From: Candidatus Pacearchaeota archaeon
GTDB lineage: Archaea > Nanobdellota > Nanobdellia > Pacearchaeales > GW2011-AR1
Direction: 5' to 3'
Length of the DNA: 36,907 bases
Assembly: GCA_002686355.1 (NCBI GenBank)
Contig: NZBV01000018.1
Location: 1 to 36,907 of the forward strand
Shown in pieces: positions 3,444-36,907 of the stretch. The stretch's first letter is position 1. Each line of letters begins with the position of its first letter. Under the pieces are notes generated by a model, which saw only the letters and a list, made by a program, of their open reading frames with translations, searched no databases and was not told where the DNA came from. The position numbers and the translations under genes were made by a program.

Positions 3444-5066
3444 ATGAGCAACGTATTATTGATAATTCCGAGGTATGATGTGACAAAAAGCAATAAAAAA
3501 GATTATAGTTATCAGTCTCCTGTGGGGCTGGGCTATATTTGCGCAACTCTGAGAAAAGAAGAATACAAGGTTGATTGCCTTAATCTGAATCACTCTGACA
3601 AAGGGCTTGCTGAACTTATACATGGCGCTTTAAAAAAGAGAAAATATGATTTTGTATGCACAGGGCATCTAGGAGTGGGGTACCCTGTAATTGAAAAAAT
3701 AATTAATGCAGTAAAATCCTACAACCCAAACCAGGCTGTTATTGTAGGTGGCCCGATTATCTCAAGCGAGCCAGAATTCATGGCAGAAAATCTTAAATTT
3801 GATTTTGGGGTGGTTGGTGAAGGAGAAGTTACAATTATTGAACTCCTTGATTTTATAAAAAAGAATAAAGATGTTTCAAAAGTAAAAGGCATTGTTTATA
3901 AGGGCAAATCTGGAAAAATCATAAGAACCTCCCCCAGGGAGAGAATTGAAGATTTAGATACTATTCCTTTTCCAGATTATAGTGACTTTGGTTTAAATGA
4001 AAAGATGGATAATATGTATTCAATAGACTCTCTTTACGGAACAATGGATCACCCCCGGACTTATTTTATGATTGGAAGCAGGGGTTGCCCTTTCCAGTGC
4101 ACTTTTTGTTATCAGAGTCTTGGTCAAAAATACAAGACAAGATCTGTAAAAAATATAATCAAAGAACTGGAATTTGCAATTGACAAATACAGGGCAAATT
4201 CCTTTCATATGTATGACGACCTTTTTTCAGTCAATAAAGAAAGACTTTATGATTTTTGCAAAGAAGTAAAAAAGTTAAACAAAAGAAGAAATGTAAATCT
4301 TAGATGGGTTTGCTCTTTATGGGTCAGCACTGTTGATGAAGAACTCCTCAAATTTTTAAAAGATTCCGGATGCACAGGGATTTGTTTTGGTTTTGAAAGT
4401 TATAGTAAAAAAGTTTTAAAGAGTATGAAAAAAAGCATAACTCCTGAGCAAATAGACAATGCAATGAAAGCGTGCATGAAAGTTCATATGCCTATTATTG
4501 CAAATTTTATTTTTGGGGATGTCACAGAAACAAAAGAAACCGCAAAAGAAACCCTTGATTATTGGAAGGAGCACTGCAATGATCAGGCAAAACTCTTTTT
4601 TATCCACGCTTATCCTGGAAGTGAAATTTATAATCATTGTATAAGAAAAGGGTTAATCAAAGACAAATTAGATTTTATTAGGAATAAAATCCCGCACACT
4701 TTTTTTATGAATATGACTGATAAAATGACTGATAAAGAATTTGAAGATTTGAAAAAAGAAATTTATAGATTAAAAGTTAAACATGGCAATTATGTTGTTC
4801 CATTTAAAGTTAAAAAAACAGATAAAAAAGATGTTTACAATCTTTCTGTTAAATGTCCTTTTTGCAAACAAACCAGCACACATAAAAATAATTATTTTTC
4901 TAATAGATTTTTCTACAGATTCCATGTTCATTGCAGAAACTGCGGAATGAGGTATCATTTAGTCAGCAAAGTCTACAAATTCACAATGGACCATTATGTT
5001 GAACTTGATTTTTTCAGAAGAAATTATCTTGAGTATAGGGGGATGTTACTTAGGAAAAAAATTTGA
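3444..5066 (+). CDS. B12-binding-domain radical SAM enzyme (class B), with C-terminal zinc ribbon (rSAM-1)
   Basis: 540 aa. N-terminal Rossmann-like domain (VGLGYICATL, VIVGGPIIS, VVGEGEVT), then LDTIPFPDY and the cluster motif GCPFQCTFC (Cx3Cx2C at 4086-4109). An extra CPFC...CRNC motif lies at 4854-4943. Confidence 0.85.
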   Translation: MSNVLLIIPRYDVTKSNKKDYSYQSPVGLGYICATLRKEEYKVDCLNLNHSDKGLAELIHGALKKRKYDFVCTGHLGVGYPVIEKIINAVKSYNPNQAVIVGGPIISSEPEFMAENLKFDFGVVGEGEVTIIELLDFIKKNKDVSKVKGIVYKGKSGKIIRTSPRERIEDLDTIPFPDYSDFGLNEKMDNMYSIDSLYGTMDHPRTYFMIGSRGCPFQCTFCYQSLGQKYKTRSVKNIIKELEFAIDKYRANSFHMYDDLFSVNKERLYDFCKEVKKLNKRRNVNLRWVCSLWVSTVDEELLKFLKDSGCTGICFGFESYSKKVLKSMKKSITPEQIDNAMKACMKVHMPIIANFIFGDVTETKETAKETLDYWKEHCNDQAKLFFIHAYPGSEIYNHCIRKGLIKDKLDFIRNKIPHTFFMNMTDKMTDKEFEDLKKEIYRLKVKHGNYVVPFKVKKTDKKDVYNLSVKCPFCKQTSTHKNNYFSNRFFYRFHVHCRNCGMRYHLVSKVYKFTMDHYVELDFFRRNYLEYRGMLLRKKI

Positions 5067-5068
5067 GG
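5064..5068 (+). promoter_or_regulatory. Shine-Dalgarno site for the internal operon gene (DUF362-ferredoxin)
   Basis: GAGGA lies 8 nt upstream of ATG 5077. Confidence 0.5.
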
Positions 5069-5076
5069 ATTAAAAG

Positions 5077-6183
5077 ATGTCTGAAAAAAGATTTATTGTT
5101 TCTATTGAAAAATGTTCTTCTTACGACCCGGAAAAAGTCAGAGTTGCCTTGGAAAATGGTTTGAAAAACATCAATTTTGAATTAGAGGAAAATTTAAAAA
5201 TTCTTATCAAGCCTAATTTAATATTTCCTGCAAAACCAGAAACTGCAATAATTACCCACCCAATTGTTTTGGAAGAATTATGTAAAATTTTGAAAAAGAA
5301 AAATGCCACTATTTTTATTGGGGAAAGTTCATCTTATGATACAGATAAATCCTTTGAAATTTCCGGAATTAATAAGCTCTCTAAATATGCAAAGATAATT
5401 AATTTTGAATCATCTCCAAAAAAGTTTTTCAATCTTGGAGCAGGAGAGTTAATGAATGTGCCTTTTCCAGAAATTCTTTTTGATGTTGATTTAATTATTA
5501 ATGTCTCAAAATTAAAAACCCATAATTTCACTAGAGCTACATTATGTGTAAAAAATCTCTATGGGTGCATCCCTGGAGGATTAAAAGGAAAATTTCACGG
5601 GGTCATCCCTTCTATCCAAAATTTTTCAAAATTTCTTTTAAAGATTAGTGAAAAAATTAATCCAGGATTGAACATTATTGATGGTGTTGTGGGGTTAGAA
5701 GGTAATGGTCCAGGTTTTGCAGGAAAACCGAAAAATTCAGGAATTTTGGTTGTATCTAAAAAAGCGGTTGCAGGAGATTTTGCAGCTTCAAAATTAATGG
5801 GTTTTAAACCTAAAGAGATTTATACAAATAAATTTTCAGGTATCGATGAAAGTGAAATAAAGATTGTTGGAAATGCGAAAGATACTCAATTAAATTTTAG
5901 AAAACCAAAATTTTCTCCAAAGATATTTCTGTCTGGTTTTTTAAAATTTCTTCCAGGTCCCAAAATAAGTTTTGATAAACTTAAATGTGTAAAATGCGGA
6001 ATTTGCAGGGACAAATGTCCTGTTGGGGCAATCGAATTAGATAAAGAGATAAAATGCAAGCATAAAAAATGCATTAATTGTCTATGTTGTATTGAAGTTT
6101 GTCCTAACGCCGCAGTTTTTCTTGAAAGACCCTTTATTATCAGATTTCTGAAATCAATCATTGTGCGAAAACAAAAGGTTTAA
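5077..6183 (+). CDS. DUF362 domain protein fused to a 2x[4Fe-4S] ferredoxin domain
   Basis: 368 aa. DUF362-like N-terminus (ILIKPNL...ITHP...IGESSS). The C-terminus carries CVKCGICRDKCP and CINCLCCIEVCP. A GAGGA site lies 8 nt upstream of the ATG, and the gene starts 10 nt after the rSAM-1 stop. Confidence 0.75.
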   Translation: MSEKRFIVSIEKCSSYDPEKVRVALENGLKNINFELEENLKILIKPNLIFPAKPETAIITHPIVLEELCKILKKKNATIFIGESSSYDTDKSFEISGINKLSKYAKIINFESSPKKFFNLGAGELMNVPFPEILFDVDLIINVSKLKTHNFTRATLCVKNLYGCIPGGLKGKFHGVIPSIQNFSKFLLKISEKINPGLNIIDGVVGLEGNGPGFAGKPKNSGILVVSKKAVAGDFAASKLMGFKPKEIYTNKFSGIDESEIKIVGNAKDTQLNFRKPKFSPKIFLSGFLKFLPGPKISFDKLKCVKCGICRDKCPVGAIELDKEIKCKHKKCINCLCCIEVCPNAAVFLERPFIIRFLKSIIVRKQKV

Positions 6184-6251: not shown

Positions 6252-7541
6252 TTAAAGCAAGTTCTCAACAACTTTTTTTCCATGCAAAATAGAATCATCC
6301 ATAGAAGAGTGCTCCCATGCCCCAAATTGCCCAACAGAATATATGCTATTTTTTATTAGATAATCCCGAATTAATTTCAGATTTTCATTGCGATTAAAAT
6401 CAAAAAGCACATATGCATGTTCTAATTTTAAAACATCCTTAAAAACAACTTCTTTTTTATCTTTAAGAAACCCCATTTTTATCAGATCCTCAATTATTCT
6501 CTCAATTAAATCTTCATCTGAGATTTTTTTATCATCAAGATAAGACCATTCTGCACAAATTGAACTCATTCCTTGCGGAGCAACATTTTTTCCATAGTTT
6601 GTTGCAAAGCTCAATCTATATGTTAAGACATCTTCTTGCGGGACATAAAGCACCTGATGTTCAGAAACTTTTGGTTTATTAACCCCCAAAATAATCGCAC
6701 AAATAGTATTGCACCTTAATTTCTTAGCTGCATTTTTAATCTCCTCAGGAGCCCCATCAATTAGTCCAACTAATTTTTTAAGAGGCATAGTAGAAACCAA
6801 ATTTTCAAAAGGATAATTTGTTTTTTCTGTAAAAACAATTTTTTTATCAATATCTATCTTAGTTACTTTTTCATCTAGTTTAATGTTTATGATTTTTCTA
6901 GCAATTGCTTTTGGAAGAAAATCTATCCCCCCCTCTTTATTATAGCCAAATTGATAATTATATCCTACCTTTGCTTTTGACATGTCTTTATTAGCACCTT
7001 TAATTATCTCTTTTAAATCAAAACGAGGAATATATCTTCCAAGATTTTCAAGAGTCAATTCTTTTGGATGAACACAATAGCATTTTTTATTATACGGAAG
7101 CATAAAGTGCTTGGCAATGCCTTCTCCTAAAGCCATTTTTATCCATTCGTAAAAATTAGTAGGGGTTTGTCCGTTAAACTTTTTATCAGCATCAATAGCT
7201 CCGGCTAAACATTCTTTTTTAGTTTCTTCATCCAGATGATAAAGATTATATTGAAAAGGATAAGGAACAACCCTCCCATTTATCAATATGCCATGTTTTC
7301 TATCCTCTGAAATTAACGCATCACCAAGCAAATCCCTTACAAGTTTTGTTATTTCTTTATTTCCAAAGAAAAACATATGTGGTGCAAAGTCAAATACAAA
7401 CCCATTTTTCCTAAATGTTCTGCACAATCCTCCAACTTCTGGATTAGCTTCAAGCAAAACATAATCTTTATTGCCCCGCTTTTCAAGATAATACGCTGTA
7501 CTTAAACCACTAAGACCCGCACCAATGATGATTGTTTTCAT
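6252..7541 (-). CDS. FAD-dependent oxidoreductase, UDP-galactopyranose-mutase-like / amine-oxidase-like
   Basis: The dinucleotide fold MKTIIIGAGLSGLSTAYYL...LEA..EVGG begins at the internal ATG 7541. The ORF-track start at 7598 is TTG and would overlap pseB. Blocks APHMFF, PYPFQ, EWIKMALGEGIAKHFMLPYNKK and the C-terminal GQFGAWEH resemble Glf-type mutases from memory. Confidence 0.55.
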   Translation of the reverse strand: MKTIIIGAGLSGLSTAYYLEKRGNKDYVLLEANPEVGGLCRTFRKNGFVFDFAPHMFFFGNKEITKLVRDLLGDALISEDRKHGILINGRVVPYPFQYNLYHLDEETKKECLAGAIDADKKFNGQTPTNFYEWIKMALGEGIAKHFMLPYNKKCYCVHPKELTLENLGRYIPRFDLKEIIKGANKDMSKAKVGYNYQFGYNKEGGIDFLPKAIARKIINIKLDEKVTKIDIDKKIVFTEKTNYPFENLVSTMPLKKLVGLIDGAPEEIKNAAKKLRCNTICAIILGVNKPKVSEHQVLYVPQEDVLTYRLSFATNYGKNVAPQGMSSICAEWSYLDDKKISDEDLIERIIEDLIKMGFLKDKKEVVFKDVLKLEHAYVLFDFNRNENLKLIRDYLIKNSIYSVGQFGAWEHSSMDDSILHGKKVVENLL

Positions 7542-7563
7542 TTTCTTATTTGTTAATCTCAAC

Positions 7564-7571
7564 TTTAATAA
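7564..7571 (-). promoter_or_regulatory. TATA-box candidate for the UGM-like flavoenzyme gene
   Basis: TTATTAAA (minus strand) is centred 26.5 nt upstream of ATG 7541, in the 44-nt gap after pseB. It supports the shorter start. Confidence 0.4.
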
Positions 7572-7585
7572 TTTTTGGAAAAGAA

Positions 7586-8701
7586 TTATTTCTTCCAACC
7601 ATGAACATATTCATTATAAGCTCGCACATGCTTTCCAACTAATTTTACCATATCATCTATTGTTAAAAACTTAGGATTAGTATTACTCACATATTGGAAT
7701 GTATCTGAAACAGACTTCCCCCCAACATGATAATCTTTCTCCCACCAATCAAACTGTGGCTGAATAATATAATAGTCTTCAAATTCAATTACATTTCTTG
7801 CATCATCTGCAGCAATCATTGATTCATGCAATTTTTCACCTGGTTTAATTCCAATATATTTTATCTCACATTCAGGAGCAATTGCCTTTGCCAAATCAAC
7901 AATCCTCATGCTTGGAATTTTTGGAACAAAAATTTCCCCCCCTCTCATACGTCTAAGACTATTTACGACAAATTTCACCCCATCCTCAAGAGTTATCCAA
8001 AACCTTGTCATTCTCTCATCAGTGATTGGAAGAACACCTTCTCTCTTTTTTTCTAAAAAGAAAGGAATAATACTCCCCCTGCTCCCAATAACATTTCCAT
8101 ATCTTGCAACAGCAAAAGAAGTTCTTTTTGTAGGAGAATGAGAGTTTGCTGCTACAAACAGTTTATCAGAACATAGTTTTGTTGCCCCATATAGGTTAAC
8201 AGGGTTGCAAGCCTTGTCTGTGCTAAATGCAATGACTTTTTCAATATTATTTTCTAATGCAACCTCAATTATATTCATTGCTCCAAGAATATTTGTCTTG
8301 ATTGTTTCAGGAGGGTTTTCTTCTCCAGTATGAACAATTTTCATTGCAGCTGTATGAACAATATAATCTACTCCTTTGCACGCAAGACTAAGCCTTTTTC
8401 TATCTCGCACATCTCCTAGAACAAATTTTAGGATTTTATTGCCATATTCTTTATTCATAAACCATTGCTTCATCTCATCACGGCTATATACAATAATCTG
8501 CTTTGGGCAATCATGTTCAAGAACATGTTTAATAAAGGCATTTCCAAAAGAACCTGTTCCGCCAGTGATTAAGATTGTTTTTCCTTCAAATATTTTCTTT
8601 TGAAAGTTTGGAGAAACACTCCTTTCAATCCTCTCCTGATTAATAACATCTCCCTTATAATCAGAATTATTCTCTTTAAATCCCCATACATTATTTTCCA
8701 T
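7586..8701 (-). CDS. pseB: UDP-N-acetylglucosamine 4,6-dehydratase (inverting), PseB/FlaA1/CapD family
   Basis: 371 aa. Near-continuous colinearity with H. pylori FlaA1/PseB from memory: ILITGGTGSFG, IIVYSRDEMKQ, GDVRD, NPVNLYGATKLCSDKLF, RYGNVIGSRGSIIPFF, RMTRFWITLEDGV, GGEIFVPKIPSMRI, GIKPGEKLHE. It has an N-terminal extension of about 40 aa. Confidence 0.85.
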   Translation of the reverse strand: MENNVWGFKENNSDYKGDVINQERIERSVSPNFQKKIFEGKTILITGGTGSFGNAFIKHVLEHDCPKQIIVYSRDEMKQWFMNKEYGNKILKFVLGDVRDRKRLSLACKGVDYIVHTAAMKIVHTGEENPPETIKTNILGAMNIIEVALENNIEKVIAFSTDKACNPVNLYGATKLCSDKLFVAANSHSPTKRTSFAVARYGNVIGSRGSIIPFFLEKKREGVLPITDERMTRFWITLEDGVKFVVNSLRRMRGGEIFVPKIPSMRIVDLAKAIAPECEIKYIGIKPGEKLHESMIAADDARNVIEFEDYYIIQPQFDWWEKDYHVGGKSVSDTFQYVSNTNPKFLTIDDMVKLVGKHVRAYNEYVHGWKK

Positions 8702-8815
8702 TTATTCTCATATCCCAAACCCTTTAAAAGATTATCTGTGCTATTTTGACAGTGTTTCTCAATAGTTAAGTTTTTATATTCGCCAGTTGTGCAAATTTTG
8801 AATCAAACACATAAA
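8702..8815. promoter_or_regulatory. Divergent promoter region (pseB / 3-dehydratase operon)
   Basis: TTTTAAA (minus strand, 8723-8729) is centred 25 nt from ATG 8701. TTTTTATATT (plus strand, 8771-8780) would give a leader of about 14 nt to ATG 8816. Confidence 0.45.
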
Positions 8816-10156
8816 ATGGAAGAAAATACTTATAACGAAAATCTTGAAAAGATAAAAGAGCTGATAAGACAAATATATGAACAAAGGAAAAAGTCCGAAG
8901 AATTCATTCCTGGCAAAAGCAAGGTTCATTATTCTGGTCCAATCTTTGATGAAAAAGAAGTAAACGCAACTATTGCCAATTTAACTGCTGGTACTTGGTT
9001 GGCAGAAGGCAAGGCTACATTGGAATTTGAAAAGCAATTCTCTGATTTAATGAGAGTGAAAGACACAATTGTTACTAATTCTGGCTCTTCGGCACTTCTG
9101 TTAATCTTTGCATGCCTCATGAATAAAGATCTGGAAAACCCTCTTAAAGAAGGCGACGAAGTTATAACAAGTGCCTTAATGTTTCCAACTACTTTGAATT
9201 CAATTATTCTAAACAGATTAAAACCTGTTTTTGTAGATGTTGAACCAGAGACTTATAATCTAGATATAAACCAGATAGAACAGATAATCTCAGAAAAAAC
9301 AAGAGCCATATTAGTTATGCATCACCTTGGCAATCCTTGCGATATGAATAGAATAGTAGATATTGCGAAGAAGCACAACTTGTATGTGATAGAAGATTGT
9401 TGCGATGCTCATGGCGCAATGTTAGGAGACAAGATTCTTGGCAGTTTCGGGCACATGGCTGCATATTCTTTTTACGGGGCTCATGCAATGACAATGGGTG
9501 AAGGGGGTGCAATAGTTGTTAATGATTTAAAATTCTCTCCACTACTAATATCTTTAAAAACATGCGGAAGAGCCTGCACCTGTGCATTTTGCAATGTAGC
9601 TGTTGACCCTGATTTCCAGTGTCCGCAAAGATTTGAGTCAAAATATGCAGGATTTGAAAACTTTGACAAGAGAACACTTTATCCAAATATCGGATATAAA
9701 TTAAAAATTTTAGATTTGCAATGTGCATTTGGCATAGAGCAATTAAAAAGGCTTCCAGATTTTGTAAAAAAAAGACAAGGGAATTTTGATTCATTAATGA
9801 ATGGGTTAAAAAAATTCGAGAAATATCTGACTCTTCCAAAAGTTTTAGAGGGAAGCAAGCCTTCATGGTTTGCAATACCAATAACACTCAAGTCTGATTG
9901 CGGATTTAGCAGAGAAGAGTTAGTTGATTATCTTGAAAAGAATAATATTGAGACACGCCCTTTATTAGGGGGCAATCTAGCAAAACAACCTGCCTATCAG
10001 GAAATTGATTTTAAATCATCCCCCCTTCCACACACAGATTATTGCCATGTCAATTCTTTTTACATTGGCTGTTACCCTGGAATAACTCAGGAAATGATTA
10101 ATTTTGTGTTAAATGTTTTTGAGGATTTTTTCAGAAAACTAGAAAACTCTCAGTAA
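8816..10156 (+). CDS. DegT/RfbH-family PMP-dependent sugar 3-dehydratase (E1/ColD-like) with a Cys-rich Fe-S-type insert
   Basis: Colinear with RfbH/E1 (FIPGKSKVHYSG, TNSGSSALL, GDEVIT...FPTT, EDCCDAHG). SFYGAHAMTMGEGG places His where aminotransferases have the PLP lysine. The Cys cluster is CGRACTCAFC...C. I prefer ATG 8816 to the GTG at 8789. Confidence 0.75.
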   Translation: MEENTYNENLEKIKELIRQIYEQRKKSEEFIPGKSKVHYSGPIFDEKEVNATIANLTAGTWLAEGKATLEFEKQFSDLMRVKDTIVTNSGSSALLLIFACLMNKDLENPLKEGDEVITSALMFPTTLNSIILNRLKPVFVDVEPETYNLDINQIEQIISEKTRAILVMHHLGNPCDMNRIVDIAKKHNLYVIEDCCDAHGAMLGDKILGSFGHMAAYSFYGAHAMTMGEGGAIVVNDLKFSPLLISLKTCGRACTCAFCNVAVDPDFQCPQRFESKYAGFENFDKRTLYPNIGYKLKILDLQCAFGIEQLKRLPDFVKKRQGNFDSLMNGLKKFEKYLTLPKVLEGSKPSWFAIPITLKSDCGFSREELVDYLEKNNIETRPLLGGNLAKQPAYQEIDFKSSPLPHTDYCHVNSFYIGCYPGITQEMINFVLNVFEDFFRKLENSQ

Positions 10157-10157: not shown

Positions 10158-11045
10158 ATGAAAAAAATTTTTATTACAGGTGGGACAGGAGGAGTAGGAA
10201 GCGAAGTATCTCTTTTTTTAGGCGATAAATACCAAGTTTATTCAGGAACAACTAATGAAAATGCAAAAATTAGAAATTGTAAGATGATCTTAATAGACAT
10301 AACAGACAGAGAAAAATTAATTAAAACAATCACAGAGATAAATCCAGATTATATAATTCATCTTGCAGCACTAACAGATGTCAATTTATGTGAAGAAAAA
10401 AAAGAACAGGCATGGAAAATCAATGTCGAAGGAACTAAAAATGTTACACTAGCAGCTGAAAGAGTAGGAGCAAAATTAATCTATGCATCAACTAACTATG
10501 TTTTTGACGGAGAAAAAGGCATGTATGCAGAAGAAGATGAACCAAGCCCTGTTAATTATTATTCTTTAACAAAAGTTAAGGGAGAAAAAGAAGCCCTAAA
10601 CTATTCTAATTCTATTGTAACCCGGCTCTGTCCTTTTGGATTAGGTGCAGAGAACAGACAAACTTTTACAACACGGGTAATCCAGGAGTTATCTAAAGGA
10701 GGAAAAATAAATCTTTTTACAGATCAATTTTTCTCTCCAATATTCACTTATAATTATGTGCAAGTTTTAGAGAAACTCTTTGAGAGTGATTTCACCGGCA
10801 TTATAAATATTGCTGGTTCAGAAAGATTAAGCAGATATGAATTTGTTAAAAAAATTGCAGACATTTTTGAGCTAGATTCAAATTTATTAAATCCGACAAA
10901 GATAGAAGACTTGGACGAGGTTGCAAAAAGACCAAGAGATACATCACTAGATATTTCAAAAGCAAAATCTTTATTTGGAGACATATTTCCTGACGCTGAG
11001 TCAGGAATAAGGCAGATGAAAAGAATAAGAGACAAAGATATCTAA
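10158..11045 (+). CDS. RmlD-like NAD(P)H-dependent 4-ketosugar reductase (dTDP-4-dehydrorhamnose reductase family)
   Basis: 295 aa. Motifs ITGGTGGVGSEV, HLAALTDVNLCEE, LIYASTNYVFDGEKG, PVNYYSLTKVKGE (YxxxK). It starts 2 nt after the previous stop. Confidence 0.65.
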   Translation: MKKIFITGGTGGVGSEVSLFLGDKYQVYSGTTNENAKIRNCKMILIDITDREKLIKTITEINPDYIIHLAALTDVNLCEEKKEQAWKINVEGTKNVTLAAERVGAKLIYASTNYVFDGEKGMYAEEDEPSPVNYYSLTKVKGEKEALNYSNSIVTRLCPFGLGAENRQTFTTRVIQELSKGGKINLFTDQFFSPIFTYNYVQVLEKLFESDFTGIINIAGSERLSRYEFVKKIADIFELDSNLLNPTKIEDLDEVAKRPRDTSLDISKAKSLFGDIFPDAESGIRQMKRIRDKDI

Positions 11046-14835: not shown

Positions 14836-14843
14836 TTATAAAT
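14836..14843 (-). promoter_or_regulatory. TATA-box candidate for the RHH gene
   Basis: TTATAAAT as written on the plus strand (ATTTATAA on the gene strand) is centred 26.5 nt upstream of ATG 14813. It overlaps the stop codon of the upstream AP-superfamily gene. Confidence 0.4.
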
Positions 14844-16152: not shown

Positions 16153-16153
16153 T

Positions 16154-22384: not shown

Positions 22385-22466
22385 TAATCTTTTCCAACCC
22401 TTAGATATATAAATGTTGTCTTTCAAATTCGATGCATTTTTAAAGAAAAGGTTTATTCATTTTAGG
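22385..22466. promoter_or_regulatory. Divergent promoter region (SDR pair / UbiA)
   Basis: TTTATATA (minus strand, 22406-22413) is centred 25.5 nt from ATG 22384. TTTTTAAA (plus strand, 22437-22444) is centred 26.5 nt from ATG 22467. Confidence 0.5.
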
Positions 22467-28425: not shown

Positions 28426-28629
28426 ATGGCACAAAAGAAAGCTTCAGAATTGAAAGAAGGAGATACAATAATTGTCTACGGGGAAAAAGCAGTTGTTAAA
28501 AAAATAGAAACTTCTGGAAAAGGCATCAAGCAAGGAAAAATCAAGTGCAGAATTGAAGCAGAATCTGTAACAGACAAAAAACCAGTGACAATAATCCGGC
28601 TTGCTGACGACTTGATTGAAGCAGCATAA
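28426..28629 (+). CDS. Stand-alone aIF5A N-terminal (SH3/KOW-like) domain mini-protein
   Basis: 67 aa. ASELKEGDTIIVYGEKAVVKKIETSGKGIKQGKIKCRI aligns by eye with the aIF5A block SLKxGxYVxIDGxPCxIVxIS.SKPGKHGxAKARI. There is no C-terminal OB domain. A TATA-like box lies 25.5 nt upstream. Confidence 0.45.
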   Translation: MAQKKASELKEGDTIIVYGEKAVVKKIETSGKGIKQGKIKCRIEAESVTDKKPVTIIRLADDLIEAA

Positions 28630-28630
28630 A

Positions 28631-29512: not shown

Positions 29513-29916
29513 TCTTTAATCTTTCCCAACTCCTCACTCAACTCCTCCAAACTCTCAACAATCTTAACTTGCCCTGCAATCACAGCACTAATATCTGAAA
29601 TAGACTCACTAACTTTTCTGTCTGTTTTCAATCCAATGACTTTCTTACCAAGAGCCTGAAAATAACCTATCTCCCATGCTGTCCCAGCCCCAACACAAAT
29701 CCCGTCTAAAACCCCAATTAAGACATCACACTCGTGCAATTCTTCAACATCCTTCTTAGATATCTCTGGGACATCTTTAATATCCTTAAACAACCCTGCA
29801 TCTCTGTGCGGCAAAAACGTCTCAAACTCAAACTCCTTACACAGTTTATCTAACTTTTCTAAAAATTCCCTGTTTTCCTCAGTGCACAACGGACCAGCAA
29901 GATAAACCTTAACCAT
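29509..29916 (-). CDS. Nucleoside 2-deoxyribosyltransferase family protein
   Basis: VYLAGPL near the N-terminus and DGICVGAGTAWEIGYFQALGKKVIGL (Glu-containing catalytic block). ATG 29916 has a TTTTAAAA box 25.5 nt upstream. The track start at 29925 is TTG. Confidence 0.75.
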   Translation of the reverse strand: MVKVYLAGPLCTEENREFLEKLDKLCKEFEFETFLPHRDAGLFKDIKDVPEISKKDVEELHECDVLIGVLDGICVGAGTAWEIGYFQALGKKVIGLKTDRKVSESISDISAVIAGQVKIVESLEELSEELGKIKD

Positions 29917-29986
29917 AACTTTCAAGAGATTCTTCCATTTTAAAAACTATCACAAAATTTTAATACCCTCTTTTTATGGCTAAAGT
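29917..29986. promoter_or_regulatory. Divergent promoter region (NDT / GT9)
   Basis: TTTTAAAA (29938-29945) is centred 25.5 nt from ATG 29916. TTTTAATA (29958-29965) is centred 25.5 nt from ATG 29987. Confidence 0.5.
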
Positions 29987-31105
29987 ATGGCAAAATGGAA
30001 TTCAAATTGCAGATTCTTCAATGAGAAATATGCTTGCGATACACTTGCTAGTGAGGGCTATGAAAGTTGCGAGGAATGCAAGTTCGCAGCACCATACTCA
30101 AAAAAAATCCTAATCTTAAAATTCGGAGCAATGGGAGATGTCCTGAGAACAACCCCAATCCTCACAGCATTAAGGAAAAAACACGGCGAGGACATCCTTG
30201 TCTACTGGATGACTGCCCAAGATTCTGTAGAACTTCTTGAAAACAATCCTCTAATTGACAAAATCTTTCCTTACAATTTAGAAAACGTCATGAGAATCCA
30301 GCAAGAAAAATTCGACATTTTATACTCTCTTGAAATTGATACACCTTCAACTCTATTAGCAAATGTCGTTAATGCAACTGAAAAATTAGGTTTTTATTTT
30401 GATGATGGAACAACATCTTGTTTTAACAAAGGCGCAGAATCATATCTTCAAACAGCATTTCTTCAACATGTAAAACTAAAAAACAGGAGAACATACCAGG
30501 ATTTAATTTTTGAAGCATGTGAACTTTCTTACAACAAGGAAAAGCCAATTTTTAATTTTTCAAAGAAAGATTTAGAATTTGGAAAAAAGTTTGCAGAAGA
30601 AAACAATCTTTTAAGATCAGACAAAATTATTGGAGTTCATATTGGTTCTTCTGGAAGGTGGGAATCAAAATTTTGGGACAATGAAAAAATAAAGGAGTTA
30701 ATAAGAAAAATCTCTGGAAGAAATAAAATAATAATCTTTGGAGGCCCAAATGAGATTGAAAAACAGAAGGAATTCTTTGAAGCAATGAAAAATGAAGGAA
30801 TTTCTTTAATCAAAAATAATCCAAATAATTCTGAAGGAGAATTTGCAGCAGTGATAAATCTCTGCGACACAATAATTTGCGGGGATAGTCTTTCAATGCA
30901 CATGGCTTCAGCTTTAAATAAAAAAACAATTGCTTTGTTTTTCTCTACCCCTTGTTGGGAAGTTGAAGATTATGATTTAATCAAAAAATTAACCTCTCCG
31001 CTCTTGGAAAAATATTTTTTTATAGGAGATTATGTCCCAGAATTAGCAGATAGTATTTCTGTTGATGAGGTTATAAATCTTTTAGAATCTAATGAAAACA
31101 AATAA
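29987..31105 (+). CDS. Glycosyltransferase family 9 (heptosyltransferase-like) with N-terminal Cys4 extension
   Basis: 372 aa. Motifs ILILKFGAMGDVLRTTPILTAL, IGVHIGSSGRW.K.W, IIFGGPNE, ICGDSLSMHMASAL. The extra N-terminal Cx8Cx10Cx2C lies at 30008-30079. Confidence 0.7.
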   Translation: MAKWNSNCRFFNEKYACDTLASEGYESCEECKFAAPYSKKILILKFGAMGDVLRTTPILTALRKKHGEDILVYWMTAQDSVELLENNPLIDKIFPYNLENVMRIQQEKFDILYSLEIDTPSTLLANVVNATEKLGFYFDDGTTSCFNKGAESYLQTAFLQHVKLKNRRTYQDLIFEACELSYNKEKPIFNFSKKDLEFGKKFAEENNLLRSDKIIGVHIGSSGRWESKFWDNEKIKELIRKISGRNKIIIFGGPNEIEKQKEFFEAMKNEGISLIKNNPNNSEGEFAAVINLCDTIICGDSLSMHMASALNKKTIALFFSTPCWEVEDYDLIKKLTSPLLEKYFFIGDYVPELADSISVDEVINLLESNENK

Positions 31106-31129: not shown

Positions 31130-32749
31130 ATGGAAGAAAAAGAAAATAATGATTTAATTGGTAAGAGAAAAAACACATTAAAAAACTTCTTTTTTGGATG
31201 GGTTGAAGATAATTATGATAAGGCTTTTCTTGGTATTTTGCTTGTTGCACTTATTTTGAGGTTCTTGGTTTTTCTAAAAACAATGGACCAGGCGATTTGG
31301 TGGGATGCTGCAGATTATCTTGCGACTGCAAAGAGGTGGGCTGGCGCCAATCCCCATTTAATTGATATGTGGTATTATCGAAGAGGATTCCTCTGGCCTT
31401 TATTTGGTTCACTCTTTCTAAGGTTTGGTTTGGGAGAAGTTGGAATAAGATTTGCAGTTGTTTTATTGTCAACTGGAATTGTCGCTGTTTCATATCTTCT
31501 TGTTTCAAAAATGTTTGATAAAAAATTAGCACTTTTTACAAGTATTGGAATAACTTTTTCATGGATATACTTGTTTTTCAGCGGACGACCATTAACAAAC
31601 CTTCCTGCGACTTTTTTCCTTTTGACTTCTTTGTTTTTTTTCTGGAAAGGTTATGTTCTCAAGGAGGGAAACAAGTTCATATATCTTTTTGGGGCATTTT
31701 ATGCTTTAGCTTGTCTAACCAGGATGCAGTATGTAACTTTTGCGATTCCACTAATGGCGCTCGTGTTCACAAAAGAAAAATTCCGAGCTTTAGTTAACAA
31801 ACATCTCTGGATTGCTATAGGGATTTTTCTCATAATCTTCACACCCCAGTTTGTTATGCATTATCAACATTTTGGAAATCCTATAACTGATTTAACATAT
31901 TATTATCTTGGAGTTGGTTCTGGAGGAGAAGCAGGAGGTGCTGGAACAGCTCCGCTCTATGTTTATTTTACAAATCTTCCATATATCCTCGACGGAAACA
32001 ATGCAGGTTATAGTTCTCTTTTAACCTTAAGCCCAATATATCTCTTATTTGTGATTGGGTTTTTCATGTTCTTTTTTGAAATGTTCTTAGGTCTTGATAA
32101 AATATTCAAAAACAAAGAAATTCAAAAGAAATTTTTCATTTTTTTCTGGATTGGATTCACATTCTTACTTTTAGCTTATATTGCTCCTCATCTTGAACAG
32201 AGATACATGATGCAGACACTACCTTTTTTGTTTGTTATAGTTGCCCAGCCTTTAATCTTTTTTGAAGAATTCCTTGTTAGAAATTTTAAGATAAAGAAAA
32301 TTTTAAGTGTCGTTTTAATTAGCACAATTTTTATTTTATTGCTTTACCCCAGTTTTGTTTTTGCAAATAACCTCGTAGAACTTAAAAAAACTTCATATAT
32401 CGAGGTAAAACAATCAGGAGAATGGATTAAGGAAAATTCAGACCCTACAGACATAATTATTTCGTCTTCTCTCCCCCAAACAACTTATTATTCAGAAAGA
32501 TCAACATATCCTTTTAATCTCGCATATCGAAGAGATATTGAAAAGAAAAATATAACAGAAACAGGGGAATTTATCCAAACAGAAAAACCGAAGTATATGG
32601 TGATTTCTGTCTATGAACAGCAAATACCTGATTTTGAATACTGGGCTTATACTTATCCTCAGAAAAATAATCATACAGTTATTCCCGTGAAAGTCTACGC
32701 ACAAGGAGAGCAACCTACCCTGATTGTTTATGAATTTAAATATGATTAA
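31130..32749 (+). CDS. GT-C-fold membrane glycosyltransferase (ArnT/PMT, GT39/GT83-like)
   Basis: 539 aa with about 11-13 TM helices, then a soluble C-terminal domain of about 130 aa. The first loop is WWDAADYLATAKRW (acidic pair). The architecture is typical of polyprenyl-phosphate-sugar-dependent transferases. Confidence 0.65.
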   Translation: MEEKENNDLIGKRKNTLKNFFFGWVEDNYDKAFLGILLVALILRFLVFLKTMDQAIWWDAADYLATAKRWAGANPHLIDMWYYRRGFLWPLFGSLFLRFGLGEVGIRFAVVLLSTGIVAVSYLLVSKMFDKKLALFTSIGITFSWIYLFFSGRPLTNLPATFFLLTSLFFFWKGYVLKEGNKFIYLFGAFYALACLTRMQYVTFAIPLMALVFTKEKFRALVNKHLWIAIGIFLIIFTPQFVMHYQHFGNPITDLTYYYLGVGSGGEAGGAGTAPLYVYFTNLPYILDGNNAGYSSLLTLSPIYLLFVIGFFMFFFEMFLGLDKIFKNKEIQKKFFIFFWIGFTFLLLAYIAPHLEQRYMMQTLPFLFVIVAQPLIFFEEFLVRNFKIKKILSVVLISTIFILLLYPSFVFANNLVELKKTSYIEVKQSGEWIKENSDPTDIIISSSLPQTTYYSERSTYPFNLAYRRDIEKKNITETGEFIQTEKPKYMVISVYEQQIPDFEYWAYTYPQKNNHTVIPVKVYAQGEQPTLIVYEFKYD

Positions 32750-33267
32750 TGTTCAAAAACAAATATCTTGCTTACTGTGAAAAAATTAATCTTTTTTTTC
32801 AATTTGAAGTTCTGTTTTAAGATATCAAAAATTTCATAGTGTCTTGTTATGTGTTCTCCTGGGACTTCAGATTTGCCTACAAATTTTCTCATCTTCCTTG
32901 AAACCCAATTCTCACTTGGAACAGAAACTATTAAATCAAAATTCTCATTTAATTTTTCAAATTTAGAAATAATTTTATTTATTTCGTCAAGAGGGATATG
33001 CTCAAAAACATCCAGAACAAATATCTTTGTTGGCGAAAGAGTCCTGTAATCTTCAATGAATGTTTTATCAGGATTATTATCATATCCATAAATTTCATAA
33101 TCTTTTAACTTTTTTTCAAGCCACCCCCCACCACACCCAAAATCAAGAATAACATCTTCTTTCTTCAATTTTGCTAACTTAATTGCCAGCCAGACCTTTG
33201 TCCTAAAATATGTTCGAGTAATCAAGCTTTTACTTTCATAAGTATTTTCAAGTTTATTGTCTTCCAT
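32746..33267 (-). CDS. Class I SAM-dependent methyltransferase
   Basis: 173 aa. VILDFGCGGGWL (motif I), YGYDNN (acidic motif II region), IFVLDVFEHIP. Confidence 0.75.
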   Translation of the reverse strand: MEDNKLENTYESKSLITRTYFRTKVWLAIKLAKLKKEDVILDFGCGGGWLEKKLKDYEIYGYDNNPDKTFIEDYRTLSPTKIFVLDVFEHIPLDEINKIISKFEKLNENFDLIVSVPSENWVSRKMRKFVGKSEVPGEHITRHYEIFDILKQNFKLKKKINFFTVSKIFVFEH

Positions 33268-33288
33268 GTTTAGAAATAATATATGGTG

Positions 33289-34244: not shown

Positions 34245-34255
34245 GCATTTCCATA

Positions 34256-35647
34256 CTATTTGCCTAAACCCAAAAAAGCAATTCCTGCATTCAAATAGGC
34301 TTTCAATTTCTTTGGGCTGTTTAGATTTTTAAGAGCCTTGAAAAATATTTTTGGTCTAAAATAAAAACTTCTATAGGCTTTTTTTTGCATCTCTATTAAA
34401 AGTTCTTCACTTAATTCTCCATGGTTAAATATAACATTCCCATAGGCAATATAATCACGATAATTTTTTGGATAAATTTCCCCTTCTTTTTTTATGATTT
34501 TCCAGTAATCTGTATTAGGGAAAGGAATTGTTATATGAAATGTCGCAGTATCAATATCAAGGCTTTTTGCAAAATTTATTGTGTCCTCCATTGTTTGCTT
34601 ATTTTCTCCAAGATTTCCAAACATGAACAACCCCCTTGTTTCTATTCCTGCCTCCTTACACCATTTAACAGCTAACCTAACCTTATTAAGGTCTATGCTT
34701 TTTTTCATATTTTTTAAGATTTGTTCATTGCCTGATTCAATTCCCAATGAGACCATATAACATCCTGCTTTTTTCATTCTCCTTAACAATTCAGGTGTAA
34801 TCCTGTCAACCCTTATTCCGTTCGCACATCTCCAGCTCATTTTTTTATTTAAACCTTTTTCAATCATCATATCACAAAATTTTTCAACCCTGTCCATAAT
34901 TAGAGTAAAATTGTCGTCGACAAAATCCCAATCTTTAACACCTCTTTTATACAACTCTTCAACTTCTTGAATCATATTTTCCGGGCTTCTGAATCTAAAC
35001 TTCTTTCCATGAACAAGATGATCTGCACAAAAGATACACTGATAAGGACACCCCCGAGAACTTAAGATATAGTCGCTCGGTGTTTGTTTCGCGCCAACAC
35101 TAAAATACTTTTCCATCGGAAGAAGATCTCTTGCAGGAAAAGGAAGGTCATCCAATTTATCATTTAATTCTCTAGAAGGATTATGAATGATTTTTTCCTC
35201 TTCTCTGTATGATAATCCTTCTATTTTTGAGAGAGGTTTTTTTTGAATAAATTCAAGCATTGTAAATTCTCCTTCACCTCTCACCAAATAATCAAATCTA
35301 TCAAATTTTTCCAAAGTTTCCTGTGGCATTGAACTAGCATGAATCCCTCCAATAATAACTTTAATTTTCCTTGGGCAAAATTTTGCGATTTCATGAGCTT
35401 CTTCAATCAAACTTGTAGTAGCAGTTATTCCGACAACATCAGGAGAATATTCCATTATTTGTTTTTTTATCTGTTCATGATTAAAGTCATTAGCATTTGC
35501 CTCTAAAATTTTAACAGGAATTTTTCCCTTTTGTAAAACTGCTGCAATATATGCCAAACCAAGTGGAGGAAACACAGGGGTAATTTCTTTTTTTTGCGCA
35601 TAAGCATAAATGCTTCGATAATTTGGCTGGATCAACAAAACTTTCAT
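34256..35647 (-). CDS. B12-binding-domain radical SAM enzyme (class B) (rSAM-5)
   Basis: 463 aa. Motifs PPLGLAYIAAVL, VVGITATT, IIGGIHASSMPQE, LVRGEGEFT, LDDLPFPARD, SSRGCPYQCIFC. Confidence 0.85.
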   Translation of the reverse strand: MKVLLIQPNYRSIYAYAQKKEITPVFPPLGLAYIAAVLQKGKIPVKILEANANDFNHEQIKKQIMEYSPDVVGITATTSLIEEAHEIAKFCPRKIKVIIGGIHASSMPQETLEKFDRFDYLVRGEGEFTMLEFIQKKPLSKIEGLSYREEEKIIHNPSRELNDKLDDLPFPARDLLPMEKYFSVGAKQTPSDYILSSRGCPYQCIFCADHLVHGKKFRFRSPENMIQEVEELYKRGVKDWDFVDDNFTLIMDRVEKFCDMMIEKGLNKKMSWRCANGIRVDRITPELLRRMKKAGCYMVSLGIESGNEQILKNMKKSIDLNKVRLAVKWCKEAGIETRGLFMFGNLGENKQTMEDTINFAKSLDIDTATFHITIPFPNTDYWKIIKKEGEIYPKNYRDYIAYGNVIFNHGELSEELLIEMQKKAYRSFYFRPKIFFKALKNLNSPKKLKAYLNAGIAFLGLGK

Positions 35648-36907
35648 TTTATCTTTTGCAGATTATATTTATTTATAGTAAATCTATAAGCATGGTCTAA
35701 TTCTAGCCCATATTTTCTTTTATAATAGGTTAGAAACACTAATAAATCCCAGATAAAAAAGGGACCTCCTTTTAAAAATCCCTCATAAATATATTTCTTA
35801 ATTTGGTATAATCTTATCTTATTAATAATTTTTTTAATTTCATTACTTGAAGCAAATTTAGTTTTTACAACAGGATTGGTAAACATGTCTTGAAAATTTT
35901 CAAATCTTTCTTTCTCAATTAAATTTTCTTTTTCACAAATTTCTTTCATTTCTGTAGAAGGTAAGGGAATCAAAACAGGGAATAGAACATAATCTGCACC
36001 AGATTTTTTAGCCATATTAAAACTCTCTTCCATCATCTCAATATTTTCATAAGGAGCCCCAATAATAAATTGCAATCTTAATTGAAGATTATATTTTTTG
36101 ATTATTTTAATCGCATCAAAGATCTGTTTTTCACTCATATTCCTCTTATAAATACTATTTCGGATATAATCATTCCCTGCTTCTACACCCATTCTAACTT
36201 CATAACACCCTGCATTTTTCATAGCTCTGATTATTTCTTCTGTAACAAGATTAGCCCTCACATTTGCATTCCATTTTAATTTCTTATGGAAACCATTTTT
36301 CCTGAATTTTTCACAAAATTCTAGGACAAAATCCCTATCCATAATAAAGGTATCATCATAAAAGAAAAGGTATTTCATTCCTTTTTTGTGGTATTGATTC
36401 ACTCTCAATTTGATTTCCTCCATTAGATTATCTACACCTCTAAATCTCACATACTTTCCTTTCAATTCTTTTTTTAGGGCATGATTACTGCAATATGTAC
36501 ACCGATATGGACACCCTCTAGAAGCCATGATTGGGAGATGGTTATTACTTATCAAAAAATATCTTTCTAAATCAAAGTCATCCCATTCTGGAAATGGCAA
36601 ATAATCTAAGTCCTCAATAAGATTTCTCTGGCCATTTTTAATCACTTTATCGTCTTTTTTATACCAAATACCTTCGATGCCCTTACAGTTTAATTTTTTA
36701 TCCAAAAGTTCTTTTAAGACTTCTTCTCCTTCTCCAATGCAAATAATATCAACTTCTTCATTTTTTATGACTTCTTTAGAAGAAAGAATACAATGGACTC
36801 CGCCAAAAATTATTTTTACATCAAAATTTTTCTTGATGAGTTTTGCTATCTTAATTGCCTGAGTATAATTAAAACTTAAAACAGACAATCCCACGAGATC
36901 TGGCGTC
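35644..36907 (-). CDS. B12-binding-domain radical SAM enzyme (class B), 5'-truncated by the window end (rSAM-6)
   Basis: The frame stays open from the track's GTG (36894) to the window edge (...TPDLVGLSVLS). PDLVG(I/L)S normally lies about 60 aa into these proteins, so the N-terminus is missing. Other motifs: IFGGVHCILSSKE, ICIGEGEEV, LDYLPFPEW, ASRGCPYRCTYC. Confidence 0.85.
   Translation of the reverse strand, partial: TPDLVGLSVLSFNYTQAIKIAKLIKKNFDVKIIFGGVHCILSSKEVIKNEEVDIICIGEGEEVLKELLDKKLNCKGIEGIWYKKDDKVIKNGQRNLIEDLDYLPFPEWDDFDLERYFLISNNHLPIMASRGCPYRCTYCSNHALKKELKGKYVRFRGVDNLMEEIKLRVNQYHKKGMKYLFFYDDTFIMDRDFVLEFCEKFRKNGFHKKLKWNANVRANLVTEEIIRAMKNAGCYEVRMGVEAGNDYIRNSIYKRNMSEKQIFDAIKIIKKYNLQLRLQFIIGAPYENIEMMEESFNMAKKSGADYVLFPVLIPLPSTEMKEICEKENLIEKERFENFQDMFTNPVVKTKFASSNEIKKIINKIRLYQIKKYIYEGFLKGGPFFIWDLLVFLTYYKRKYGLELDHAYRFTINKYNLQKIK

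Follow-up and report, generated by a model that had tools for sequence, protein, structure and literature searches.

The window analyzed in this work is a 36,907-nt stretch of DNA from Candidatus Pacearchaeota archaeon (DPANN), and it carries an island of glycan-assembly genes among which a set of radical S-adenosylmethionine (SAM) enzymes is encoded. Most of these enzymes belong to class B, which among the branches of the radical SAM superfamily is both the largest and the least explored. Thirty-two sizeable open reading frames (ORFs) were found in the window, and six of them combined a B12-binding domain (PF02310, 41–73 bits, Pfam gathering score 32.1 bits) with a Radical_SAM domain (PF04055, 56–89 bits, gathering score 29.5 bits). 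Since six matches to this two-domain architecture were obtained among 32 ORFs, chance was excluded. The six paralogues were named rSAM1 to rSAM6 in coordinate order, and the name rSAM7 was given to one more paralogue that lies past the window end. The first-pass annotation of the window had predicted the six class B ORFs together with a seventh enzyme of the SPASM type at 24685–25830. All six were confirmed by Pfam, the seventh contained both the Radical_SAM and the SPASM domains, and the CxxxCxxC strings that had been quoted were exact. No membrane segments were predicted in the radical SAM enzymes of the window. In public records these genes are annotated generically as 'B12-binding domain-containing radical SAM protein'. 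It was also observed that several orthologues of rSAM1 and rSAM5 carried misleading public names, namely 'Ribosomal protein S12 methylthiotransferase RimO', 'anaerobic magnesium-protoporphyrin IX monomethyl ester cyclase' and 'YgiQ'.

The N-terminal motifs that had been attributed to all six paralogues were broadly right, but they were not universal. The GGxH motif was present in five of the six, with GGPI in ORF 3444 (rSAM1) as the exception, and the His was replaced by Ile or Leu (GGxL/I) throughout the rSAM1 orthogroup. GEGE was kept in four paralogues, NEGE being found in ORF 12149 and GEAE in ORF 17334, and the same two ORFs lacked the PFP linker of the other four. When the sequences were aligned seven-way, only G101, D119, R198, the three cluster cysteines, D244, G295 and E348 were invariant. 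The pairwise identity among the six window paralogues was 24–34%, therefore they were regarded as old paralogues and, as had been proposed, not as one duplicated block; a recent tandem duplication was ruled out by the same values. Five closely spaced same-strand gene groups contained a class B gene, and the partners within them were those named earlier, the grouping being one of strand, spacing and gene order only. The C-terminal part of rSAM1 formed a β-rich domain (residues 450–510), in which C471, C474, C497 and C500 were invariant in 28 orthologues; for this four-Cys domain, a zinc ribbon and an auxiliary metal site are both conceivable. The cluster motif of rSAM7 had an unusual CX4CX2C spacing (RDCWWGRCKFC), which was kept in 18 of the 18 orthologues examined.

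Identical deposited proteins (CMI44_01340 and CMI44_01190, NCBI) belonged to Candidatus Pacearchaeota archaeon. The window corresponded to the reverse complement of positions 61,227–98,133 of a 154.5-kb ENA contig (ERZ17294083 NODE_425396), from which the flanks were taken. Upstream of window position 78 the contig carried SecDF, an ABC transporter, RpoN, L21e and a Rpb4-like gene. As these are archaeal housekeeping genes, the island was concluded to start at GalE, within an archaeal chromosome. The GC content was even across the window (0.30–0.35), and a search for tRNAs and Rfam families found neither in it. A mobile or viral island was ruled out by the uniform composition, the flanking housekeeping genes and the synteny that was kept across many genomes.

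Past the window end, 10 kb of the source contig were covered (a stretch designated L001). They contained the rest of rSAM6, an alkaline phosphatase (AP)-superfamily Phosphodiest protein, a protein of 400 amino acids, a family 2 glycosyltransferase (GT2), a NodB-type deacetylase, the B12-type rSAM7, another GT2, a flippase-like PF03706 protein and the start of a Glycos_transf_4 (AglH/MraY-type) gene, inside which the covered stretch stops. The flippase-like protein scored above the cut-off of TIGR00374, and its match to HpnL was weak. The island extends over at least 47 kb and holds at least eight radical SAM genes. The earlier count of seven was correct for the window, but it fell short for the island, as one more B12-type gene lies within 10 kb past the window end. 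The N-terminus of the 400-aa protein carried a GGFGRGEG...DYDF motif suggestive of a nucleotidyltransferase fold of the Pol-beta type.

Full-length orthologues of rSAM5 with 50–87% identity were found in many Pacearchaeota and Nanoarchaeota assemblies. Three B12-type radical SAM genes lay in the 21 kb around the rSAM5 orthologue of GCA_040961015, five such genes and one SPASM gene in 21 kb of RBG_13_33_26, and four in 21 kb of a relative on an ENA contig. Eighty loci were recovered from JGI metagenomes, and the counts given here cover the 27 loci of at least 12 kb (12–21 kb). The rSAM5 orthologue was present in 27 of the 27, the 400-aa protein in 20, PMT_2 in 19, rSAM7 and a GT2 in 18 each, the AglH-like transferase, the flippase-like protein and the small methyltransferase in 14 each, the Phosphodiest protein in 13, and rSAM6 and STT3 in 10 each. 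The 400-aa protein stood directly upstream of rSAM5, or of a Phosphodiest–rSAM6–rSAM5 array, in its 20 loci. The number of B12-type genes per locus ranged from 1 to 5 with a median of 3, and 24 of the 27 loci had at least two. Whether radical SAM genes stay together with GT and GT-C genes in related genomes had been set beforehand as a test of the glycan assignment, and this co-localization was strongly conserved in the three assembled relatives and in the metagenome loci.

The gene order in contigs that extended far enough to show it was STT3/AglB, AglH-like, GT2, (deacetylase), GT2, rSAM7, flippase-like protein, 400-aa protein, rSAM5, (rSAM6), Phosphodiest, methyltransferase and PMT_2, followed by GT9, a nucleoside 2-deoxyribosyltransferase-like (NDT-like) gene, GT2 and a QueC-like gene. 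This core order of the relatives was collinear with the window from 36.9 kb back to 27.6 kb. In two related loci (L004 and L006), STT3 was located directly before the AglH-like gene. Close relatives, in which rSAM5 was about 80% identical, were also compared with the proteins of the window and the source contig. Mean identities of 80, 70 and 67% were obtained for rSAM5, rSAM7 and rSAM6, and of 66, 63, 51, 45 and 39% for the methyltransferase, the AglH-like protein, PMT_2, the flippase-like protein and the 400-aa protein, respectively. No other genes of the locus are as constrained in close relatives as those for the radical SAM enzymes.

Orthologues of rSAM4 (73–74% identity) adjoined a GT4 gene in L004 and L088, and full-length orthologues of rSAM1 with about 50% identity occurred across the lineage. 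The rSAM1 orthologues of L088 and L089 lay within glycan islands, and the one in L089 was directly preceded by a Wzx orthologue (44% identity), as in the window. Seven radical SAM genes were found in one 21-kb stretch of L089. Given this locus and the other relatives rich in radical SAM genes, the saturation was concluded to be a trait of the lineage: what had been noted for the window is real, but it is typical of the 27 loci and not peculiar to this genome. A scan of the GTDB genome set returned only one distant locus, from the bacterial Omnitrophota, in which a B12-type radical SAM gene was placed between genes for a short-chain dehydrogenase/reductase (SDR) sugar enzyme and a DegT aminotransferase.

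The seven radical SAM enzymes of the window and rSAM7 were scored against the NCBIfam models, and no curated cut-off was reached by any of them. The relevant cut-offs were 577.6 bits for HpnJ (TIGR03471), 481 bits for BchE (TIGR02026), 500 bits for AprD4 (NF033070) and 360 bits for MgmA, the methyl-coenzyme M reductase glutamine C-methyltransferase (TIGR04014). HpnJ was the top model for four of the six window paralogues and for rSAM7, and BchE was the top model for ORF 12149. The six window paralogues gave 80–236 bits with HpnJ and 75–208 bits with BchE, and the HpnJ model was covered end to end by two core paralogues (236 and 191 bits). The AprD4 model gave 37–107 bits in five paralogues and had no match for ORF 25879 among the 18 families listed, and the MgmA model gave 24–132 bits. 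The lipid-biosynthesis model TIGR04072 reached 81–127 bits across all paralogues, and ApyD and rSAM_ocin_1, models for peptides made on ribosomes and modified post-translationally (RiPPs), reached 84–158 bits, in both cases far under the cut-offs. The scores of PhpK, ApyD, MgmA, BzaD, AprD4 and TIGR04072 were lower than those of the top models and far under their own cut-offs. Membership in the HpnJ, BchE, PhpK, MgmA, AprD4 and BzaD families was ruled out by these values, which agrees with the expectation that the enzymes fall outside characterized non-glycan clades. No hopanoid genes, which would mark an HpnJ-type context, were present in the window or its flanks, and the neighbors were glycan genes.

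By sequence, the nearest solved structures of rSAM5 and rSAM1 were MgmA (9ccb) and AprD4 (6fd2), then OxsB, TsrM, TokK and CysS, and the sole match of rSAM4 to a solved structure was TokK (E = 1e-4). AlphaFold (AF2) models were obtained for rSAM5 (pLDDT 90.4) and rSAM1 (pLDDT 90.0). The top Foldseek matches were MgmA, AprD4 and TsrM for the former and TsrM, OxsB, CysS, MgmA and AprD4 for the latter, with E-values of 1e-19 to 1e-26 against MgmA, TsrM, OxsB, CysS and TokK. Both models have the predicted class B fold, a Rossmann domain followed by a partial TIM barrel. The highest TM-score of the rSAM5 model was recorded with AprD4 (0.77), and the sequence E-value of this pair, 1e-21, was equal to that with the cobalamin enzyme MgmA.

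These matches bear on the use of cobalamin. Cobalamin is not bound by the homologues of AprD4 and ArsL that fall in this sequence space, no structural feature separates the methylases from the non-methylating members, and cobalamin is bound base-off without a conserved protein ligand, with no residue-level signature (2026 review, PMC12931638). DPANN archaea are absent from the lineages for which PMC11459464 lists a complete cobalamin pathway. Because the fold match to AprD4 was as close as those to MgmA and TsrM, cobalamin use was considered unproven. Cobalamin dependence of the window paralogues is plausible, but the strong cobalamin dependence of the organism that had been predicted does not yet follow.

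Evidence on the class of substrate came from a related locus. A single uninterrupted ORF of 870 residues (L088:14094-16706, minus strand; GCA_902386025.1, CABMHR010000001.1) encoded a DegT sugar aminotransferase joined to a class B radical SAM enzyme, the latter with a GCPYACTYC motif. The ORF adjoined genes for a sugar-1-phosphate nucleotidyltransferase (NTP_transferase) and a nucleoside diphosphate (NDP)-sugar 4,6-dehydratase. The fusion was found in four cluster representatives from related lineages, and the radical SAM half was free-standing in slightly more distant relatives. The closest homologues of the aminotransferase half were fused to SAM-dependent methyltransferase or GNAT domains, partners that act on the same NDP-amino-deoxy-sugar as the aminotransferase half. 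As Rosetta-stone evidence, the fusion indicates that at least one class B lineage of these islands acts on nucleotide-sugars. The fused radical SAM half shared 27% identity with rSAM3 and belonged to a different paralogous lineage.

The remaining genes of the island are listed together with the radical SAM genes in Table 1.

Table 1. Genes of the glycan island in the window and in the adjoining stretch of the source contig (L001)
Gene product	Position	Strand	Matches and remarks
UDP-glucose 4-epimerase GalE	78..1031	+	TIGR01179 377 bits (cut-off 262); left edge of the island
Wzx-type polysaccharide flippase	1078..2592	+	PF01943, PF13440
NodB-type polysaccharide deacetylase-like, weak	2582..3346	-	PF01522 24.5 bits (cut-off 23.1); no NCBIfam match
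rSAM1, 540 aa	3444..5066	+	PF02310 + PF04055; CPFQCTFC at residue 215; HpnJ 168 bits, BchE 142 bits
DUF362 + 2x[4Fe-4S] ferredoxin fusion	5077..6183	+	PF04015 151 bits, Fer4; 10 bp downstream of rSAM1
FAD-dependent amine-oxidase-family oxidoreductase	6252..7598	-	PF01593, PF13450
PseB-type inverting UDP-GlcNAc 4,6-dehydratase	7586..8701	-	TIGR03589 494 bits (cut-off 408)
RfbH-like DegT-family protein (sugar 3-dehydrase/aminotransferase type)	8789..10156	+	NF011936 456 bits (cut-off 423); PF01041
RmlD-like NDP-4-keto-sugar reductase	10158..11045	+	PF04321 184 bits; TIGR01214 194 bits, under cut-off 224
GT4 glycosyltransferase	11096..12142	+	PF00534
rSAM2, 524 aa	12149..13723	-	PF02310 + PF04055; CPHRCTFC; HpnJ 100 bits, BchE 148 bits, BzaD 138 bits
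PAPS-reductase-family protein (PP-loop superfamily)	13769..14527	-	PF01507 153 bits; NF002537 147.7 bits, just under cut-off 154
AP-superfamily (sulfatase-fold) enzyme	14836..16188	-	PF00884 171 bits; ..NATAPSLMSIFTGR..
GT4 glycosyltransferase	16154..17332	-	PF00534 119 bits; 46% identity orthologue in L089
rSAM3, 512 aa	17334..18872	-	PF02310 + PF04055; CTGRCTFC; HpnJ 152 bits, BchE 145 bits
PAP2 lipid-phosphate phosphatase	18906..19355	-	PF01569
D-2-hydroxyacid dehydrogenase family protein	19407..20366	+	PF02826, PF00389
Two SDR sugar epimerase/reductase paralogues, best match HpnA-like	20363..22426	-	PF01370; TIGR03466 116 and 141 bits, under cut-off
UbiA-family protein, nearest to decaprenyl-phosphate phosphoribosyltransferase	22413..23321	+	PF01040; NF008977 151 bits, under cut-off 234
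Polytopic membrane protein, GT-C-like	23318..24601	-	No Pfam match; weak NF047440; about 11 hydrophobic segments
Radical SAM/SPASM enzyme, 381 aa	24685..25830	+	PF04055 + PF13186
rSAM4, 511 aa	25879..27414	+	PF02310 + PF04055; HpnJ 80 bits, BchE 75 bits; best TIGR04013 and TIGR04072, about 81 bits each
QueC-like PP-loop ATPase	27655..28365	-	PF06508 145 bits; TIGR00364 120 bits, under cut-off 150
GT2 glycosyltransferase	28616..29512	+	PF13641, PF00535; conserved core, 12/27 related loci
NDT-like protein	29509..29925	-	PF05014
GT9 (heptosyltransferase-family)	29987..31105	+	PF01075
PMT_2-type GT-C glycosyltransferase	31130..32749	+	PF13231; conserved core, 19/27 related loci
Small SAM-dependent methyltransferase	32746..33267	-	PF13489; conserved core, 14/27 related loci, about 66% identity
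Near-orphan protein, 297 aa	33323..34216	-	No Pfam or NCBIfam match
rSAM5, 463 aa	34256..35647	-	PF02310 + PF04055; HpnJ 236 bits, BchE 208 bits; most conserved gene of the locus
rSAM6, N-terminus cut by the window end	35644..36907	-	PF02310 + PF04055; HpnJ 143 bits, BchE 132 bits; 479 aa on the contig
rSAM6, full length, 479 aa	L001 8565-10004
400-aa protein	L001:6232-7434		No Pfam or NCBIfam match
rSAM7, B12-type radical SAM	L001:2712-4181		About 5-7 kb beyond the window end; HpnJ-like, HpnJ 191 bits, BchE 133 bits
Glycos_transf_4 (AglH-like initiating transferase)	L001 1-746		Start of the gene only, beyond the window

The DUF362-ferredoxin fusion is a possible electron donor of rSAM1. The specific wiring of ORF 3444 to this protein, which had been claimed, did not extend to the relatives: the fusion did not adjoin the rSAM1 orthologues of L088 and L089, and a conserved pair was not upheld in either locus. 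The 3'-phosphoadenosine-5'-phosphosulfate (PAPS)-reductase-family protein (13769..14527) shared a gene group with rSAM2 and lay upstream of it. The sulfatase-fold protein (14836..16188) had T-A-P-S-L (..FTGR) at the C/S-x-P-x-R site, that is, a Thr at the nucleophile position and a Leu in place of the Arg. In Cys/Ser-type sulfatases the signature Cys or Ser is converted to formylglycine. The Thr at this position suggests that the protein is not a sulfatase but a phosphotransferase or phosphodiesterase for which no maturase is needed.

The best NCBIfam match of the SPASM enzyme was a tungsten-cofactor maturase model (103 bits against a cut-off of 380). The role of an anaerobic sulfatase-maturating enzyme (anSME) was rejected, as no anSME match was found in NCBIfam and the sulfatase-fold neighbor has a Thr nucleophile. 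The SPASM enzyme was 75% identical to L089:17803-18987 (Nanoarchaeia), when the neighboring Wzx, rSAM1 and GT4 orthologues shared just 44–49%; such a value points to very strong constraint or to lateral transfer. The stretch 18906–24601 (PAP2, the two SDRs, UbiA and the GT-C-like protein) resembled the mycobacterial pathway of polyprenyl-phospho-ribose/arabinose donors, with all scores under the cut-offs.

A search of 1.84 billion representative proteins gave the near-orphan protein (33323) only 13 weak relatives (E-values of 1e-13 to 3e-4); two of these relatives matched PHP_C weakly, and no PDB match was found for the near-orphan protein. The idea that it is a degenerate Phosphodiest protein was dropped after BLAST showed no link between the two. 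Its homologue held the same position after rSAM5 in L015, and in several other relatives a Phosphodiest-like gene followed rSAM5/rSAM6. The QueC-like, NDT-like, GT9 and GT2 genes occurred together in L014, L015 and L031, and L086 had GT9, NDT-like and GT2 genes without a QueC-like match. Sugar amidation or nucleotide handling is possible for the QueC-like and NDT-like proteins.

We proposed that the island is a chromosomal surface/N-glycan super-locus of Pacearchaeota, most of which lies in the window, and that sugars bound to nucleotides or to lipids are tailored in it by the radical SAM paralogues; we consider this reading reasonably probable. The right part of the window (~27.6–36.9 kb), together with the 10 kb beyond it, forms a lineage-conserved core. 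It comprises the AglH-like transferase, GT2s, the NodB-type deacetylase, the HpnJ-like radical SAM enzyme, the flippase-like protein, the 400-aa protein, rSAM5, rSAM6, the AP-superfamily enzyme, the small methyltransferase, the PMT_2 GT-C enzyme and a GT2, and in relatives it directly abuts STT3/AglB, which probably lies upstream on this contig as well. The left part (0.1–24.6 kb) appears to be a sugar-tailoring region of greater variability, with GalE, Wzx, PseB, RfbH-like and RmlD-like enzymes, GT4s and the UbiA/PAP2/SDR/GT-C module, and rSAM1 to rSAM3 are embedded in it.

Each paralogue most likely cleaves SAM reductively at the [4Fe-4S] site of the CxxxCxxC motif, and the resulting 5'-deoxyadenosyl radical would abstract hydrogen from either a nucleotide-sugar or a sugar linked to polyprenyl or dolichyl phosphate. 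Possible outcomes are C-methylation (if cobalamin is bound), AprD4-like deoxygenation or dehydration, and ring contraction as proposed for HpnJ and the calditol synthase Cds. Assembly of the tailored sugars on the lipid carrier would then be followed by flipping and by transfer to acceptors such as surface proteins. The heavily C-alkylated sugars suggested by the first-pass annotation are one possibility among several; a ring contraction is proposed for HpnJ, the best-scoring family, and AprD4 is a dehydratase.

Known systems provide partial parallels. In archaeal agl loci (Haloferax, Methanococcus, Sulfolobus), as in the relatives studied here, STT3/AglB is accompanied by an AglH-like transferase, GT2 and GT4 enzymes, flippase candidates and sugar-nucleotide enzymes. 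The agl-type parts of the present island are the Glycos_transf_4 gene (L001 1–746), the flippase-like TIGR00374 protein, the Wzx of the window, and GT2, GT4, GT9 and GT-C enzymes. We know of no characterized agl cluster that contains radical SAM enzymes, whereas these are the most conserved components of the Pacearchaeota locus. In the hopanoid module HpnI/HpnK/HpnJ/HpnL, a GT2 adds N-acetylglucosamine (GlcNAc) to a lipid, the sugar is deacetylated, and a ring contraction to a cyclitol is proposed for HpnJ (PMC13459092). The Pacearchaeota core likewise has a GT2, a sugar deacetylase, an HpnJ-like radical SAM enzyme and a flippase-like protein of PF03706, the family of the membrane protein HpnL, to which the match was weak. 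However, the paralogues scored under half of the HpnJ cut-off, the organism is archaeal with no hopanoid genes in view, the archaeal deacetylase is NodB-type, and the core is tied to AglB/AglH and not to a squalene-hopene cyclase; the likeness is one of analogy and not of membership.

AprD4 (PDB 6fd2), a radical SAM 1,2-diol dehydratase of apramycin biosynthesis, shares the two-domain fold (TM-scores of 0.75–0.77 to the rSAM5 model) and acts on a sugar, paromamine. It differs in its low identity (21%), in NF033070 scores of at most 107 bits against 500, and in its place in an aminoglycoside antibiotic pathway, and it is cobalamin-free (PMC12931638). MgmA/QCMT, TsrM, TokK and CysS have the same Rossmann and partial TIM barrel domains and the CxxxCxxC motif and were among the top fold matches, but the identities were 15–23% and the TIGR04014 scores at most 132 bits against 360. 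The methylases GenK, GenD1 and Fms7 act on unactivated sugar carbons (PMC12931638); unlike the enzymes proposed here, these known cobalamin-dependent enzymes belong to secondary metabolism and not to envelope glycans. A precedent for the radical remodeling of lipid-linked sugars in archaea is given by Cds of Sulfolobus, a radical SAM enzyme that turns a lipid-linked hexose head group into a carbocycle, although its homologues come mainly from acidophiles (PMC13459092). The open-access full-text literature yielded no description of DPANN glycan loci or AglB loci with radical SAM enzymes, in line with the earlier remark that no described envelope glycan pathway was known to recruit so many of them. 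Antibiotic and hopanoid pathways already include class-B-type enzymes that act on sugars, and what is new is their conserved recruitment into an archaeal envelope/N-glycan pathway.

Several points weigh against the proposed sugar-tailoring role. No cut-off of a characterized family was reached, so no reaction can be assigned by homology, and HpnJ and BchE, the top matches nearly throughout, may simply be the most generic models. MgmA, the enzyme with the nearest solved structure, acts on a protein and not on a sugar. Cobalamin binding is not readable from sequence or fold. The aminotransferase fusion belongs to another paralogue in other genomes, thus its bearing on the window enzymes is indirect. 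Finally, the adjacency to AglB was seen in relatives, and on this contig the covered flank ends inside the AglH-like gene.

The alternatives differ in how far they depart from a glycan role. Several paralogues may have the class B fold and yet be cobalamin-free, as AprD4-like dehydratases, ring-contracting enzymes or epimerases. This is compatible with glycan tailoring, the island would then imply little or no cobalamin dependence, and we regard it as a serious possibility, though one we lean against. The dominance of the cobalamin-dependent TsrM, OxsB, CysS, TokK and MgmA among the fold matches and the PF02310 scores above threshold in all six paralogues argue for cobalamin, whereas the top TM-score and the sequence E-value of AprD4, the failure of AprD4/ArsL homologues to bind cobalamin, the loss of the GGxH His from rSAM1 and its whole orthogroup, and the list of full-pathway lineages without DPANN argue against it.

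A larger departure would be that the paralogues remodel lipids, either the polyprenyl/dolichyl carrier or membrane lipids scavenged from the host, by methylation, cyclization, cross-linking or changes of saturation state, in the manner of GrsA/B, Gmm, HpnP/R and ladderane-type enzymes. The DPANN archaea, to our knowledge, generally lack lipid synthesis, which was counted for this explanation, as were the UbiA-family, PAP2 and flippase-like (weakly HpnL-like) membrane proteins of the island, the TIGR04072 scores of all paralogues, and the very high conservation of rSAM5 and rSAM7, which would suit a conserved lipid substrate. GrsA/B also belong to the same B12-type radical SAM megacluster (PMC13459092). 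However, all lipid-family scores were far under the cut-offs, the enzymes had no predicted membrane segments, their neighbors were overwhelmingly sugar-nucleotide enzymes and glycosyltransferases, a related class B lineage was fused to a sugar aminotransferase, and Zeng et al. found no homologue of Tes in Pacearchaeota (PMC8941075). A lipid role was accordingly judged unlikely. Still less probable, and in our view improbable altogether, is a role in the modification of proteins or peptides, such as C-methylation or cross-linking of S-layer, pilin or secreted proteins, or RiPP maturation of the MgmA, Mmp10, PoyC or ApyD-like kind. The nearest solved structure by sequence and fold is indeed the protein glutamine C-methyltransferase MgmA, the ApyD and rSAM_ocin_1 models gave some score, and the locus is linked to the protein-modifying AglB. 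Against this, the RiPP-model scores were far under the cut-offs and no higher than those of HpnJ and BchE, no conserved small precursor gene was present in the three assembled related loci, and no RiPP-typical peptidase or exporter was found among the window genes by Pfam.

A more specific form of the proposed glycan-tailoring role was also considered, and it is put forward as a speculation of low probability. In Pacearchaeota, and probably in the wider Nanoarchaeota, AglB-linked N-glycosylation might include an obligatory radical SAM step throughout the lineage. The lipid-linked sugar at the reducing end, after the GT2 and de-N-acetylation steps, would be the substrate of the HpnJ-like enzyme with the CX4CX2C motif and of rSAM5, resulting in a carbocyclic (cyclitol-like) or C-branched unit, and the variable paralogues would add diversity to the outer sugars while these are nucleotide-linked. 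Such a unit is not known in any protein glycan. If cobalamin is bound, glycan synthesis in these reduced-genome symbionts would also need cobalamin from the host or the community.

The largest sequence groups of class B radical SAM enzymes are without a characterized member (PMC12931638). The locus described here gives a biological context to at least four conserved uncharacterized orthogroups, which are better conserved than the glycosyltransferases beside them, and makes these orthogroups targets for the discovery of enzymes that carry out C-methylation, deoxygenation or carbocycle formation on sugars. If the paralogues do tailor sugars or lipid-linked glycans, archaeal protein glycans would hold radical-made structures that have not been seen before, and the cell-surface chemistry of DPANN archaea, which is central to host attachment, would depend on iron-sulfur and possibly cobalamin chemistry.

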